Positions 19,380 to 58,757 of a stretch of 64,000 nt of DNA are shown in pieces (the stretch's first letter is position 1; each line of letters starts with the position of its first letter). The stretch is from Patescibacteria group bacterium (GTDB lineage Bacteria; Patescibacteriota; Patescibacteriia; UBA1558; GWA2-36-10): assembly GCA_041665545.1 (NCBI GenBank), contig JBAYIQ010000001.1, forward strand, positions 137,911-201,910, in the 5' to 3' direction. The notes under the pieces were generated by a model. That model was not told the origin of the DNA and made no database searches. It worked only from the letters and a program-made list of their open reading frames with translations. The position numbers were made by a program, and so were the translations under genes.

Positions 19380-19530
19380 ACTTATTTAATAAACATGATA
19401 GTTTAACACTTTTTAACAGATTAGTCAATATATTTTTATTATAGCATATTTAACTATTTAATTAAACAAAAAACCAGTTAAAAAACTGGAGAAAAATAAC
19501 CGACTAGAAATGCAAAAAATAACTTATTAT

Positions 19531-19663
19531 CTCGTGCCCTTCGACGCTGAATGTCCCTCGACTTCGCTCGGGACACTCGATTCTTCAGAGTCGAATGGTC
19601 GGAGGTGCTGATAAGCACCGTAGACCACGAGTGAGACTTTTGCGAAGCAAAAGGCGAATCGAG
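19531..19663 (-). repeat. tRNA-3'-adjacent structured element, copy 1 (immediately follows CCA of tRNA-Thr; followed by terminator)
   Basis: RNA sense CTCGATTCGCCTTTTGCTTCGCAAAAGTCTCACTCGTGGTCTACGGTGCTTATCAGCACC...GAATCGAGTGTCCC..GGGACA..CACGAG; three hairpins plus two crossing long-range helices. Confidence 0.7.
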
Positions 19664-19739
19664 TGGAGCCGTCTCGCGGGCTTGAACCGCGGACCTACGC
19701 CTTACCATGGCGTTGCTCTACCAACTGAGCTAAGACGGC
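19664..19739 (-). tRNA. tRNA-Thr (anticodon GGT)
   Basis: cloverleaf GCCGTCT/AGACGGC acceptor, anticodon loop ATGGTAA, T-loop GGTTCAAGCC, CCA encoded. Confidence 0.85.
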
Positions 19740-19754
19740 ATATAAATTAAATAT

Positions 19755-19879
19755 CTCGTGCCCTTCGGCTCACTCCGTTCGCTCAGGGCATTCGACTCCT
19801 TCGAGTGGTCGAAGTCCGAGGCAAAGCCGAGGGCGCAGACCATGAGCGAAGTTCCGAGCCTGCGAGGAACGGAGTCGAA
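19755..19879 (-). repeat. tRNA-3'-adjacent structured element, divergent copy 2 (between tRNA-Tyr and tRNA-Thr)
   Basis: starts CCATTCGACTCC right after ACCA and pairs with downstream GGAGTCGAATGG; shares CCATTCGACTC, GAGCGAA and terminal CGAAGGGCACGAG with copy 1. Confidence 0.55.
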
Positions 19880-19965
19880 TGGTGGGTGGAGAAGGATTCG
19901 AACCTTCGAAGGCGTATGCCAACAGATTTACAGTCTGTCCCAGTTGACCGCTTTGGTATCCACCC
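19880..19965 (-). tRNA. tRNA-Tyr (anticodon GTA), type II with long variable arm
   Basis: GGGTGGA acceptor, anticodon loop CTGTAAA, variable arm, T-loop GGTTCGAATCC, CCA encoded. Confidence 0.85.
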
Positions 19966-19979
19966 AAAATAATAAATAT

Positions 19980-20222
19980 TTATTTTTTAAGCAACTTTTG
20001 AAAAGCTTCCCCGCCTTTGTACTTTTTAATCTGTAACTCCCTACGATAAGTATCATTACGATTATTAAAATTTTCAATATGCTTTATTACCCAGGAGATG
20101 CCATTTTTCGTAGATCTGACTTTACCAGCGTTATGCAACATTAATCTATTTTCTATATTTTTTGTATGACCAATATAATATCTATCTAACTTACTACTAT
20201 ATAAAATATAAACTACAAACAT
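19980..20222 (-). CDS. small GIY-YIG nuclease superfamily protein (YhbQ/UPF0213-like)
   Basis: FVVYILYSSKLDRYYIGHTKNIENRLMLHN = GIY-(10-11)-YIG spacing with downstream R and N; 80 aa; ends 14 nt upstream of tRNA-Tyr. Confidence 0.65.
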   Translation of the reverse strand: MFVVYILYSSKLDRYYIGHTKNIENRLMLHNAGKVRSTKNGISWVIKHIENFNNRNDTYRRELQIKKYKGGEAFQKLLKK

Positions 20223-20238
20223 CGCTTTCTTGAAGATT

Positions 20239-20321
20239 TATGCCGCCTCGGGCGGCACCCCGCCCGCCGGCGGTGGCAGTCTGTCCCGGTTGACCACTTC
20301 GGTACCGACCCTCCACACTAA
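20239..20321 (-). pseudogene. fossil 5' half of a tRNA-Tyr (acceptor, D-arm, anticodon stem through CTG of anticodon loop) interrupted by a 35-nt GC-rich double hairpin
   Basis: GGGTCGGTACCGAAGTGGTCAACCGGGACAGACTG + CCACCGCCGGCGGGCGGGGTGCCGCCCGAGGCGGCA + TAAATCT, then diverges into RBS/ATG of GIY-YIG gene. Confidence 0.6.
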
Positions 20322-20373
20322 TACTTACCCAAGATAATAAATATTTATTATCTATAAAAAATTACAAAACTCA

Positions 20374-21261
20374 CTAAGACAAATTATCTATTTTTTCGTT
20401 GAACTCGATTATTTTATTATTTTCCGGATTAACGGCCTTTAATTGCTCCAAATAATCATTAGCCAGCGCTTTGTCCTGGATAATTATACAAAGATTTATC
20501 AAAAAGTCAAGAATTTTAGGATTGTTTGGAGCCAAAATATAGGCACGTTGGGCTGTTTGCAGGGCTTTTTCTTTATCATCAAGCTCCATGTAAACCTCAG
20601 CTAATGACAAAAAATATAAATAATTATCATCAGAAAGTGAAATCGAACGCAAATAATCATCTTCCGCTTGTTTTAAATTGCCACGCTCTTTGGCAATATC
20701 AGCTAAAGAAAAATAGACGCTGGAGTCAGCTTCGTGTGTCAGTCGCAATAAATATTCCAAAGTTTCTTTGGCTTCATCAAATTGCTTGCGAGCTCGGTAA
20801 AGATCAACTAATAACTTATAAGCCTCGACATTATGAGTATCAAGAGACAAGCCATCAATTAATTTGTCTTCCGCTTTTTGATATTCTTCATTATTGATCA
20901 GCTGTCTGGCTTCTACTAAAAAGCTATCCAAGGTCTGCGATTTGCCAACGGCTTCGCTTAATTGCTTTTCGCCTTTTCTTTTTAACTCGTGTTCAAATGA
21001 TCTTAATCTTTGATAATAATTTTTAAAATTCAAATTTATTTGATCCTGAATCGGCTCCAATATTTTTTTTATTCTAGCAGACAAACTTTGAGCGCCACGA
21101 TACAAACGTCCTTGTAAAATTATCTGTTTTTGTCGCTCGGCTTTTATTTCCGGTAAATTATTAATATTAATACTGGCCAAATTTGGCGACTTGCGCAATA
21201 ACATCTGGACTATAAAAAAACCAGAAGCTAGTATTAATATTATAAGTAAAATGTCTGTCAT
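20374..21261 (-). CDS. membrane-anchored tetratricopeptide (TPR) repeat protein
   Basis: N-terminal TM; repeated A/Y/L TPR-like 34-aa units. Confidence 0.6.
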   Translation of the reverse strand: MTDILLIILILASGFFIVQMLLRKSPNLASININNLPEIKAERQKQIILQGRLYRGAQSLSARIKKILEPIQDQINLNFKNYYQRLRSFEHELKRKGEKQLSEAVGKSQTLDSFLVEARQLINNEEYQKAEDKLIDGLSLDTHNVEAYKLLVDLYRARKQFDEAKETLEYLLRLTHEADSSVYFSLADIAKERGNLKQAEDDYLRSISLSDDNYLYFLSLAEVYMELDDKEKALQTAQRAYILAPNNPKILDFLINLCIIIQDKALANDYLEQLKAVNPENNKIIEFNEKIDNLS

Positions 21262-28170: not shown

Positions 28171-28196
28171 AAATTTATAACTTTAATTATAAGGTT

Positions 28197-28270
28197 TATC
28201 GCCCAGAGGGCGACCCCGTCCCGCAACGCGAGATGGCGACACCACTGCTCTACCAATTGAGCCCGCCCGG
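28197..28270 (-). pseudogene. fossil 5' half of tRNA-Thr(CGT)-like gene fused to GC-rich hairpins
   Basis: GCCGGGCGGGCTCAATTGGTAGAGCAGTGGTGTCGCCA resembles 5' half of adjacent tRNA-Thr, then GC hairpins GCCCAGAGGGC etc. Confidence 0.5.
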
Positions 28271-28322
28271 CACGCCGATGGCGTAGCCATGGCGGAAGGG
28301 CTATCTCGGCCCAAGGCCGTCT

Positions 28323-29761: not shown

Positions 29762-30110
29762 AACGAGTTGGGGGGTGTTGGGACGCTCGAGAAGTCCTGG
29801 GGACACCTGCTAGTTGTGGTCAGGGCCCGAACTGTTTGGGCTCGCTGTAATCCCGCAAAGGTTAGCGGGTGCAGTTTATCAGACCACGGATGGCAATCCT
29901 GATCCTTGTCTGTTGGGACAATGGGGATGGACCCGTCTTATCGTCGTCCCGAGGCCTCGGGCGACCAGCTGGCAGTGCCGATTTTTGAAAAACGTTCCCC
30001 ACAGACGGTGACGTGAAGCGCTCACGTTTCCTAGCGGGGATATCCTTGGCCAGGAGAGAATACAGGCCTCGGCTTACCTTCAGGACTTGTCCTGGCACCC
30101 CCCGTGTTCC
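29762..30110 (+). ncRNA. rnpB: candidate RNase P RNA (bacterial type A-like)
   Basis: P1 pairing GGGGGGTG (29769-29776) with CACCCCCC (30096-30103); CR-I-like GAGAAGTCCTGGGG; CR-IV-like ACAGGCCTCGGCTTA (30062-30076); GC-rich about 340 nt with own promoter and terminator. Confidence 0.55.
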
Positions 30111-30116
30111 TACCGA

Positions 30117-30165
30117 TGAGGAGTCTTTGTCTACACCATGGCAAGACTCCTTTTCTTTTTGTTTA
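30117..30165 (+). terminator. rho-independent terminator after RNase P RNA
   Basis: ggagtctttgtctacaccatggcaagactcc + ttttcttttt. Confidence 0.55.
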
Positions 30166-30220
30166 AAATAAAGAAATACCGCCGTCGAACCAGTGGGTTC
30201 GATGGCGGTACGAAATGTCC

Positions 30221-30412
30221 CTACACCTTCATGCAGGGAGCGTGAGGTGTGTCGCGATGCAAGCGCAGCTTCTCGGGAGTGATGTTGTTCCCGCACTCCG
30301 CCATACTGCACTTGACGCAATGCTCGCTCTTGAGGTGCCGAAGCCCCCTTTCCGAACGCGGAAGCGTTCTCCTGTTCGCATTGTTCCCCTTGGTGACCTG
30401 CTTCTTGCCCAT
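30221..30412 (-). CDS. small GC-rich Cys-containing protein (64 aa), moron-like cassette B
   Basis: start MGKKQVTKGNN preceded by AAGGAGGG SD; Cys cluster HCVKCSMAECGNN; promoter TTGACA-17-CATAAT at 30461-30489 (minus); 14-bp GC hairpin terminator 30178-30212. Confidence 0.45.
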   Translation of the reverse strand: MGKKQVTKGNNANRRTLPRSERGLRHLKSEHCVKCSMAECGNNITPEKLRLHRDTPHAPCMKV

Positions 30413-51382: not shown

Positions 51383-51507
51383 CTCGTGTCCCTCGACTCA
51401 CTCCGTTCGCTCGGGACACTCGATTCGCAGGAATGAGAATGGTCGGAGGTGCGATAAAGCACCGTAGACCACGAGTGAGTCTTTTGCAAAGCAAAAGGCG
51501 AATCGAG
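51383..51507 (-). repeat. tRNA-3'-adjacent structured element, copy 3 (immediately follows CCA of tRNA-Lys)
   Basis: about 88% identical to copy 1 over first 70 nt; compensatory changes in hairpins (GGTGC-TTTATC-GCACC vs GGTGCT-TATC-AGCACC). Confidence 0.7.
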
Positions 51508-57876: not shown

Positions 57877-58086
57877 AATACCACACGAAGATTTTTCCTA
57901 ATATTCAGCGTCCTTAGAACTCTTAAAACCGAGCTCCTGCCATTTAGACAAATCCCACTTTTGTGAATAAAATGGCACTTCTATTTTCACGGAATTTATT
58001 TCTTTTCTTATTATATAAAAACTGGCCGTCGCACCTGCCTGTCTGCCGATAGGCGGGCACTTGACCCAATAGCATATATTTACTAT

Positions 58087-58139
58087 CGAATGGTCGTAGA
58101 CCACGAGTGAGTCTTTTGCGAAGCAAAAGGCGAATCGAG
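58087..58139 (-). repeat. truncated copy 4 of tRNA-3'-adjacent structured element
   Basis: CTCGATTCGCCTTTTGCTTCGCAAAAGACTCACTCGTGGTCTAC then deletion of hairpin and distal half. Confidence 0.55.
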
Positions 58140-58301: not shown

Positions 58302-58531
58302 ATATTAATAACCAACTGCTTGTCCGCCAAAGCTCCAAGGGAGCGACGGCGGAAGCTATATGCCCTTAAATAATAAACTACCGAAAATGGCTTAGCCATC
58401 CGTAGCTCCAAATAAAAATAACTATACTTTATACGTTTTGTCATCCTACTCCGCCAGCTGGCGGATATGGATGACATCCTTCGCACCGCGAAGGATGGTA
58501 AAAACCCTTAGCATTCAAAGCTATTTTCTTT

Positions 58532-58606: not shown

Positions 58607-58647
58607 AGAACCAAAAGAAAATAGCTTTTAGAATAAAGGTTGCCTGC

Positions 58648-58757
58648 CCGCCGAAGCTTTGAGCGTAGCGAGGAGCGAAGGCGGGAGAACCTGATGTCCT
58701 AACCGCTCGCCTCGCTTCGCGAGCGAAGCGGGTTAGACGATGGGGCCAAAACACTGG
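58648..58757 (-). pseudogene. fossil 5' half of tRNA-Glu with GC-hairpin insertion in D-loop and GC-rich tail
   Basis: GGCCCCATCGTCTAAC[CCGCTTCGCTCGCGAAGCGAGGCGAGCG]GTTAGGACATCAGGTTCTC vs tRNA-Glu GGCCTCTTCGTCTAGTGGTTAGGACACTAGGTTCTC. Confidence 0.5.

Follow-up and report, generated by a model that had tools for sequence, protein, structure and literature searches.

A minimal GIY-YIG nuclease gene between a hairpin-split partial copy and an intact copy of tRNA-Tyr in a Patescibacteria genome

Layout of the tRNA-Tyr/GIY-YIG locus

The stretch of DNA analysed (64,000 nucleotides, referred to as the window) covers positions 137,911 to 201,910 of the forward strand of contig JBAYIQ010000001.1, from the Patescibacteria group bacterium assembly GCA_041665545.1. 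It contains an open reading frame (ORF) for an 80-residue GIY-YIG protein, preceded by a partial 5' copy of tRNA-Tyr and followed by an intact tRNA-Tyr gene. This arrangement had been proposed in a first-pass annotation made from the sequence alone, and was confirmed with coordinates obtained by ARAGORN, Rfam and Pfam. All features of the locus lie on the minus strand. Related loci in other assemblies are designated L002, L003 and so on.

20312-20353, minus: remnant of the 3' end of an older cassette plus spacer, AGATAATAAATATTTATTATCTTGGGTAAGTATTAGTGTGGA, directly upstream of the partial copy
20277-20311, minus: partial 5' copy of tRNA-Tyr, GGGTCGGTACCGAAGTGGTCAACCGGGACAGACTG, positions 1 to G34, 'B-type' allele GGGTCGG...
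20241-20276, minus: GC-rich double hairpin of 36 nt between G34 and U35 of the partial copy, with the sequence CCACCGCC-GGCG-GGCGGGG, then TGCCGCC-CGA-GGCGGCA
20234-20240, minus: TAAATCT, tRNA positions 35-41, with which the partial copy resumes after the hairpins
20223-20233, minus: purine-rich leader TCAAGAAAGCG, 11 nt, before the ATG; presumed ribosome-binding region
19980-20222, minus: GIY-YIG ORF, 80 amino acids, minimal Slx1/UPF0213-type domain (Pfam PF01541)
19966-19979, minus: spacer of 14 nt from the stop codon to the intact tRNA-Tyr gene (read from the sequence)
19880-19965, minus: intact tRNA-Tyr(GTA), 'A-type' allele GGGTGGA...TCCACCC (ARAGORN; Rfam tRNA, 57.5 bits)
19664-19739, minus: tRNA-Thr(GGT) (ARAGORN and Rfam)

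The 14-nt distance between the nuclease stop codon and the intact tRNA-Tyr gene is exactly as first described, and so is the order TAAATCT, leader, ATG. Two adjacent hairpins do occupy the anticodon loop of the partial copy, in a module of 36 rather than 35 nt. Their supposed location at the canonical tRNA-intron position was not upheld: the insert lies at 34/35, not at 37/38, and there was no group I intron signal.

The partial copy at 20277-20311 covers the 5' strand of the acceptor stem, the D-arm, the 5' strand of the anticodon stem and the loop through G34. It matches the neighbouring intact gene in 30 of 35 positions (37 of 42 if TAAATCT is included), and one D-stem pair is altered on both sides, from A-T in the intact gene to G-C in the copy, in agreement with the compensatory stem changes reported earlier. 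The local alignment of the fragment with tRNA-Tyr scored 45 against a shuffle maximum of 23, far beyond chance. Without the insert the fragment is identical (42/42) to the intact tRNA-Tyr of L003, and it matches in 39 of 42 positions the tRNA-Tyr of L096, a site without cassette. Covariance-model scoring had been named in the first-pass annotation as a check on this relationship; the tRNA model did not report the fragment even at E<=10, which is expected, and uninformative, for half a tRNA with a 36-nt insert, and the relationship is carried by the identity to the L003 gene.

A direct repeat surrounds the insert. It consists of 35+7 nt of tRNA and of approximately 24 nt of spacer, AATAAATATTTATTAT[C/T]TT, which is also repeated upstream of each tRNA-Tyr copy. 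The sole coding ORF between the repeats is that of the GIY-YIG protein, and there is no tyrosine or serine recombinase. In the remnant upstream of the partial copy, 23 of 24 nt are the same as the GIY-YIG stop codon and spacer of the window (19966-19986), and the remainder has its homologue in the spacer before the intact tRNA-Tyr gene of L003, L097 and L105. An independent assembly (L002, SRR6484324) reproduced 450 nt of the locus exactly, and an assembly artefact can therefore be dismissed. The only terminator-like site on the minus strand is at 19474-19489, after tRNA-Thr. The leader GAA(A)GCG-ATG is kept in L003, L004, L005 and L097, and the stop codon in homologous loci falls between 38 nt inside the tRNA and approximately 30 nt 5' of it. 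The segment after the hairpins, which can be up to 14 nt long, co-varies elsewhere with the anticodon stem of the local tRNA (TAAACCT, TAAATCAG...).

A split or intron-containing tRNA was considered and rejected, as no 3' half that could pair with the fragment was found on the tRNA strand. CCGACCC has four matches in the window, all on the opposite strand, and the only local one (20305-20311) is the fragment itself. After the ORF comes a complete tRNA and not a 3' exon.

The double hairpin was found between G34 and U35 in more than 20 tRNA-Tyr cassettes, where it ends 8-23 nt before the start codon. It is predicted to fold into two adjacent stems, CCACCGCC-loop-GGCGGGG and TGCCGCC-loop-GGCGGCA. 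The stems are nearly invariant, though the encoded proteins are only about 55% identical, whereas the loops vary freely and take expansions of 20-60 nt. Where a stem does change, which is rare, compensation is seen: L017 has U-A for C-G, L097 and L105 are shortened symmetrically, and the L009 type has a different outer pair. Folding of fragment plus hairpin as a single sequence was no better than that of shuffles (z = -0.5); the informative data are the comparative ones, in which covariation is very scarce, the stems being nearly invariant. The module also occurs at 35/36 of a tRNA-Ser(GGA) fragment in L046 and in the D-loop of a tRNA-Ser(GCT) fragment in L026, and in a mirror layout described below a single TCCCG..CGGGA hairpin stands in for the anticodon arm of the partial copy. 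This makes the module a feature of the partial copies and not of the start of the ORF. The motif CCGCC..GGCGG was found 11 times in the window, mostly by tRNA genes, against 0.41 expected (27-fold over). The conservation of the hairpin stems shows that they are under selection.

One further GC-rich stretch (30060-30360) was noticed in the window, which has 40% GC. It contains a CCGCC..GGCGG hairpin whose loop includes a T-loop-like GGTTCGA; it sits where several long ORFs of both strands overlap, and it had no Rfam match.

The ORF product matched PF01541 with E=2.7e-12 and 47.2 bits (cut-off 22.6), which bears out its initial assignment. When a profile of the family was compared with the PDB, the solved UPF0213 structures BH0048 (1.9e-16) and EF2693 (3.5e-13) were found, and after them SLX1 (4e-07). 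The AlphaFold2 model (predicted local distance difference test, pLDDT, 95.3) has the order strand-strand-helix-strand-helix-helix, and its top PDB matches were UPF0213 and Slx1 structures (for Slx1, TM-score ~0.7 and root-mean-square deviation 1.7-2.2 Å), followed by the I-TevI catalytic domain. Across 23-26 homologues there is no variation at Y5, Y16, G18, R26, H30 and E62, a set that includes the catalytic Tyr, Tyr, Arg and Glu. The ratio of non-synonymous to synonymous substitutions (dN/dS 0.12-0.30) indicated purifying selection. All 80 amino acids form one domain, the catalytic core, with no accessory domain. This ratio, the invariant catalytic residues and a confidently modelled GIY-YIG fold indicate a functional ORF, and sequence and model together place its product with the UPF0213, or prokaryotic Slx1-like, minimal GIY-YIG proteins. 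A search of NCBIfam, TIGR01453 included, gave no match to the window protein. The family counts 3351 cluster representatives at E<=0.001, of which 260 pass E<=1e-10.

Many of the database homologues (P0029-P0178, P0010, P0018) are annotated as proteins of 100-130 amino acids in which the match starts only at residue 20-50. Probably the gene callers ran the ORF upstream through the tRNA fragment and the hairpins. A few of the entries consist of two fused GIY-YIG domains.

Recurrence and turnover of the cassette

One genome per species was scanned with an alignment of the GIY-YIG protein, and the 60 closest loci, each from a different species, were taken. A tRNA gene was counted as linked if it was on the same strand within 150 nt, and a partial copy if it scored above the 99th percentile of shuffles. 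Linkage was found at 45 of the 60 loci, and a partial copy of the adjacent tRNA lay on the opposite flank of the ORF at 37 of the 44 loci that could be tested. The locus is thus not the one-off fossil for which it had initially been taken; it is one member of a widespread and stereotyped architecture with a conserved partial copy and double hairpin.

Two layouts were distinguished. In the first, found in Patescibacteria and some other phyla, the order is 5' partial copy, ORF, intact tRNA, and the tRNAs concerned are Tyr, Ser, Thr, Trp, Glu, Met, Pro and Asp. The second is the mirror image (intact tRNA, ORF, 3' partial copy); it occurs in Bacteroidota and Ignavibacteria, including cultured Flavobacterium, with tRNAs for Ala, Val, Pro, Arg and Ser. 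The protein clades track the identity of the tRNA (Tyr, Ser, Thr, Trp, Val, Ala, Pro), with some nesting across phyla. Homologues below approximately 37% identity had no tRNA linkage. The ORF is broken or frameshifted in L030, L053 and L066, and arrays of partial copies are present in L003, L009 and L022. The decayed ORFs, the copies without ORF and the arrays are signs of a cycle of gain and decay. No partial tmRNA copies were found beside the tmRNA-linked homologues L070 and L075.

In L009 (2622-3584; also in L010-L012 and L022) three hairpin-bearing 5' partial copies of tRNA-Tyr are followed by the intact gene, and only the second unit has a GIY-YIG ORF. The anticodon-loop inserts of these arrays are 70-107 nt long, with AT-rich expansions within the hairpin loops. 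In the Flavobacterium loci (L041-L043, L061, L068) an intact tRNA-Ala or tRNA-Val gene is followed by a terminator-like hairpin, the GIY-YIG ORF and a 3' partial tRNA in which a TCCCGA-TGCA-TCGGGA hairpin takes the place of the anticodon arm. Flavobacterium sp. LPB0248 (L043) and F. cucumis DSM 18830 (L068) are among the cultured strains with the cassette.

Three other tRNA genes of the window are each preceded by their own 5' partial copy with no ORF:

28171-28310, minus: partial-copy region of tRNA-Thr(CGT)
58642-58747, minus: partial-copy region of tRNA-Glu(CTC)
58309-58365, minus: partial-copy region of tRNA-Val(CAC)

These copies are broken by GC hairpins in the D-loop, the anticodon loop or both, and are probably scars of cassettes or relatives of them that have no ORF. 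Altogether, four of the six tRNA genes of the window have a hairpin-bearing fragment of their own beside them.

Relatives of the same locus were found by scanning metagenome contigs with the neighbouring TPR protein. The gene order TIM - aldolase - TPR - tRNA cluster is conserved, and the presence of the cassette is patchy. A paralogous cassette preceding tRNA-Thr(GGT) comes and goes independently of the tRNA-Tyr cassette, and all four combinations were seen:

No cassette: L095, L096, L099, L102, L112, with tRNA-Tyr 28-70 nt past the TPR gene and neither fragment nor hairpin
tRNA-Tyr cassette only: the window
tRNA-Thr(GGT) cassette only: L104, L108-L111, L114, L115
Both cassettes: L003, L004, L094, L097, L105

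The five loci of the first line are clean empty sites, that is, the uninterrupted tRNA-Tyr genes that the first-pass annotation had suggested looking for in related genomes. One further observation was made at two other loci. L005 and L006 share an identical GIY-YIG protein, tRNA-Tyr and downstream tRNA-Thr(TGT) behind two different upstream contexts. One is the TPR locus; the other, rpsB-tsf-PSP1, has a tRNA-Tyr 5' fragment that is very different. The explanation could be a transfer or rearrangement of recent date, or else a contig with a chimeric end.

The nearest related locus is L003, in which the flanking genes have approximately 90% nucleotide identity to those of the window and the TPR protein is 96% identical. 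It shows the reciprocal layout. Its intact tRNA-Tyr (GGGTCGG...CCGGCCC) is of the type of the window's fragment, and its broken upstream copy (GGGTGGATACC...) is of the type of the window's intact gene; the 3' end matching the latter, TCCACCCACCA, lies about 300 nt downstream and is itself broken by hairpins. Both halves of the window's A-type tRNA-Tyr thus occur in L003 as hairpin-broken pieces that flank the cassette. To derive either arrangement from the other, an intact allele from outside would be needed, and so at least one replacement must have taken place since the window and L003 split. The locus has a history of repeated turnover and not of a single invasion, and the remnant at 20312-20353 points in the same direction. 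The reciprocal A and B alleles fit co-conversion, but both alleles also occur without a cassette. No resistant tRNA allele was seen in the carriers: tRNA-Tyr genes with and without cassette showed no systematic difference.

Two further observations were made on these alleles and copies. In loci L093-L172, close relatives that share this gene order, the acceptor stem of tRNA-Tyr switches from locus to locus between GGGTGGA/TCCACCC and GGGTCGG/CCGGCCC, with GGGTGGG as a further form, and it does so in carriers and non-carriers of the cassette alike, which suggests frequent replacement of whole alleles. Downstream of the intact tRNA-Tyr of L003 (3355-3640) there are two tandem 3' partial copies, each of which starts with CAGACTG, the 36-nt hairpin module and TAAATCTGTTGG...; the second has an additional insert in the T-loop and ends with the acceptor strand of the other allele. 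Similar 3' partial copies follow the tRNA in L014, L018, L035, L124 and L167.

A separate GC-rich element of approximately 125-135 nt starts at the CCA end of tRNA-Tyr, tRNA-Thr(GGT) and tRNA-Lys, and a shorter piece of it is found downstream of tRNA-Val. Its copies are:

19755-19879, minus: trailer element
19531-19663, minus: trailer element
51383-51507, minus: trailer element
58086-58139, minus: trailer element
L096, 3496-3633, and L105, 3829-3940: trailer element in relatives
L070 and L075: trailer element after tmRNA

The element begins with CCA-(C/T)TCGA(C/T)TC and ends with GTCGAGGGACACGAG. In the consensus fold of five copies a long-range stem encloses variable hairpins and is followed by a conserved hairpin; 12 of its 28 pairs change on both sides. 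Neither the trailer element nor the fragment and the hairpins matched a family in Rfam. The trailer element may be a tRNA 3'-trailer RNA or a processing element.

A probable homing-like cassette and the alternatives

The duplication of part of the tRNA gene, the patchy presence, the many tRNAs and two layouts, the decay of ORFs, the arrays and the swapped alleles lead us to favour, as the probable explanation, that the locus is a selfish, homing-like cassette which splits a tRNA gene and supplies a replacement copy. The suggestion that an incoming unit of nuclease and tRNA displaced the resident tRNA-Tyr stands in part: the alleles of L003 and L096, the mirror layout and the empty sites agree with it; its simplest form, one invasion, does not fit. 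Architecture, recurrence, patchiness, the allele swap and the selection on ORF and hairpin stems are the observations on which the explanation is built; nuclease activity and target, homing, co-transcription and the role of the hairpins belong to a model that would run as follows.

The cassette would consist of the GC double hairpin, the short leader and the gene for the 80-residue Slx1/UPF0213-type GIY-YIG protein. It would interrupt a tRNA gene, always together with a duplicated part, so that one intact copy stays, at no loss to the host. Of the window's two copies, tRNA-Tyr 1-41 with the hairpins at 34/35 would be the displaced one, and the one after the ORF the functional one. The tight packing suggests that the ORF is transcribed from the tRNA promoter as the leader of the tRNA precursor, and that a cut by RNase P at the 5' end of the intact tRNA releases this leader. 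On the model of T4 SegB and other free-standing GIY-YIG endonucleases, the nuclease would break cassette-free tRNA genes, in or near the gene. Repair could then be templated by the cassette-bearing allele, with conserved tRNA sequence as homology arms, and would copy in the cassette, often together with the tRNA allele of the donor. This would lead to replaced alleles, as in the A/B swap of the window and L003, and to partial copies in tandem arrays. As a bare catalytic core with a structure-specific nuclease among its relatives, the protein is more likely to recognise a DNA structure than a long sequence, the cloverleaf of the tRNA gene and the GC hairpins being candidates. In the weakest step of the model, the hairpins in the partial copies would most likely destroy the target or break the homology of the repeats.

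Several points weigh against a selfish cassette. The nuclease gene has approximately 89% nucleotide identity between the window and L003, the same as the flanking genes, and so the cassette, judged by divergence, was probably already present in their common ancestor. Within the TPR clade protein identity roughly follows host identity; inheritance is thus mostly vertical, and loss could account for much of the patchiness. A DNA-binding domain of the homing-endonuclease kind is absent from the 80-residue protein, and we know of no activity or target for any UPF0213 member. The phage, plasmid and IMG/VR viral-contig collections yielded no relatives, and no vector was evident. A simple scan upstream of the fragment gave no convincing sigma-70-like promoter. 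Finally, the adjacent intact tRNA keeps any target that the tRNA might bear, which leaves self-immunity unexplained.

Some of these points are shared by the alternative that survives best, although we regard it as unlikely: a UPF0213 protein with a host function in tRNA metabolism (processing, repair or quality control), encoded in an operon with the tRNA, the tRNA-like partial copy and its hairpins being a regulatory leader or a decoy to which the protein or a tRNA-binding factor would attach. The linkage to tRNA genes is tight, on the same strand and often overlapping, the ORF is under purifying selection, the hairpin stems beside the start codon are invariant in sequence, and the divergence of the nuclease matches that of the flanking genes. 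A further point for it, and against the selfish cassette, is that fusions of prokaryotic Slx1-like domains with a TrmH-like tRNA methyltransferase sometimes occur (PMC1564403), a hint at an RNA-related role in the cell. However, close relatives do without the gene at the same locus, many different tRNAs are accompanied in two mirror layouts, and decayed ORFs and partial copies without ORF are common. The allele swap between the window and L003 would be hard to obtain from regulation, and to our knowledge all GIY-YIG enzymes characterised so far act on DNA.

Slightly more doubtful would be a reversal of roles that we rank just below the host function, in which mobility resides primarily in the GC hairpins, as in REP elements or mitochondrial GC clusters, with the GIY-YIG protein as the structure-specific nuclease that serves them (cf. 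RAYT/REP), and hairpins pile up in partial copies because these are harmless sites. That CCGCC..GGCGG is 27-fold over-represented and clustered at tRNA genes, including sites without ORF, would be explained, as would the occurrence of one motif family (TCCCGCC..GGCGGGA, CCACCGCC..GGCGGGG) in D-, anticodon and T-loops across phyla; the closest solved relatives of the protein are indeed structure-specific nucleases. A hydrolytic nuclease alone, however, cannot perform strand transfer, and the duplication of the tRNA is left unexplained. Moreover, the double hairpin has one exact position relative to the ORF start across distant tRNA-Tyr cassettes, indicating that it was inherited with the cassette and not inserted independently.

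It is quite improbable that the locus is the remnant of a group I intron with a GIY-YIG endonuclease in the anticodon loop of tRNA-Tyr, whose ribozyme decayed after the duplicated 5' exon had made splicing needless. Such introns are common in anticodon loops of Patescibacteria tRNAs, including 35/36 of tRNA-Tyr (PMC13011429), the insert is within the anticodon loop, and some members of the family are weakly similar to TIGR01453, below its cut-off. But Intron_gpI had no match, either at E<=10 within 19400-20500 or, across the whole window, at the gathering score, the part of the insertion outside the ORF is only about 55 nt, and neither the D-loop module of L026 nor the mirror layout, which has no anticodon-loop insertion, fits an intron; besides, PMC13011429 reports no GIY-YIG endonuclease genes from the introns of bacterial tRNA genes. 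That tRNA-Tyr was simply duplicated in tandem and decayed, with an unrelated small ORF in between, or that the locus is misassembled, can practically be discounted: direct repeats and tRNA clusters are prone to both events and the L002 contig ends inside the tRNA, but two independent assemblies give an identical sequence, layout, break point and hairpin module are the same in dozens of species, and the fragment is an exact copy of the allele of another lineage instead of a decayed copy of its neighbour.

A wider generalisation of the selfish-cassette explanation is put forward only tentatively, as we hold it to be somewhat more likely wrong than right. It would posit a cross-phylum class, unrecognised until now, of elements of ~350 bp, in which a bare Slx1-like core and GC hairpins recognise tRNA genes by DNA structure and not by sequence, insert in loops and rescue the gene by partial duplication in place of splicing, thereby driving frequent replacement of tRNA alleles and leaving a litter of hairpin-bearing tRNA fragments in Patescibacteria and Bacteroidota.

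Relation to known systems

A literature search, with subscription journals outside its coverage, turned up no account of a GIY-YIG gene nested in a duplicated tRNA gene. Under the proposed explanation the locus type is a free-standing nuclease gene that brings along a substitute for the gene which it disrupts, and it looks like a member of an undescribed family of selfish elements that enter tRNA genes without destroying them. If so, the large and widespread group of stand-alone UPF0213/Slx1-like GIY-YIG domains would gain a concrete role. The known routes into essential RNA genes are self-splicing introns and integration by an integrase with duplication of the att site; rescue by partial duplication would be a third. 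It would also account for the tRNA fragments and GC hairpins around the tRNA genes of the Candidate Phyla Radiation (CPR), for the switching of tRNA alleles among relatives, and for a recurrent misannotation, with ORFs extended through the fragment and partial tRNAs confusing tRNA counts. An 80-residue nuclease that finds its sites by DNA structure might be of use as a tool. The presence of the family in cultured Flavobacterium strains offers an experimental system in which direct testing is feasible.

Mobile endonuclease ORFs of organelles, such as the insertion in atp6 of Allomyces, bring along a replacement piece of the target gene. As here, an endonuclease ORF sits in an essential gene with a copy of the displaced part and a non-functional remnant of the resident gene beside it. 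In those cases, however, the targets are mitochondrial protein-coding genes, the fusion is in frame and the nucleases have other architectures, whereas the gene hit in the present case is a bacterial tRNA gene, of which either the 5' or the 3' part has been duplicated. Integrase-borne islands and prophages at tRNA and tmRNA genes are likewise flanked by a direct repeat of part of the tRNA, and the copy they carry preserves function. The present loci differ from them in having no integrase, an insertion of only ~345 nt, break points in loops with hairpins and, in the Patescibacteria layout, a duplicated 5' half. REP/RAYT elements, the GC clusters of yeast mitochondria and fungal double-hairpin elements are also short GC palindromes in AT-rich genomes, some of them linked to a nuclease; unlike these, the hairpins described here lie mainly in tRNA-derived fragments, at a fixed position of the cassette, and the enzyme is a GIY-YIG hydrolase and not an HUH transposase.

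Among bacterial systems, the group I introns found within Patescibacteria tRNA genes encode HNH, LAGLIDADG and PD-(D/E)XK endonucleases and no GIY-YIG enzymes (PMC13011429). They share with the cassette the phylum, the genes, the loop and the insertion into an essential tRNA gene, but the cassette has no ribozyme, and the gene is rescued by duplication instead of splicing. GIY-YIG ORFs have been described in non-intron insertions of CPR rRNA genes, at the tops or bases of stem-loops (PMC11270868). There too a GIY-YIG ORF is found in a structured RNA gene without an intron in the same phylum; the targets, however, are rRNA genes, and no compensating duplication was described. A survey of GIY-YIG proteins published in 2006 described minimal prokaryotic Slx1-like proteins and a tRNA methyltransferase fusion, and mentioned no linkage to tRNA genes (PMC1564403).

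T4 SegB, a GIY-YIG endonuclease encoded in a tRNA cluster, drives the preferential inheritance of that cluster (PMC2330249) and its segmental amplification (PMC13096335). Both SegB and the present protein are encoded among tRNA genes outside introns, and the tandem amplification of tRNAs driven by SegB is resembled by the arrays of partial copies. SegB, however, is larger, has a DNA-binding part, is phage-borne and lies between tRNA genes, whereas the protein described here is a bare core of 80 amino acids, encoded in the chromosome and nested, with a conserved GC double hairpin, in a partly duplicated tRNA gene.

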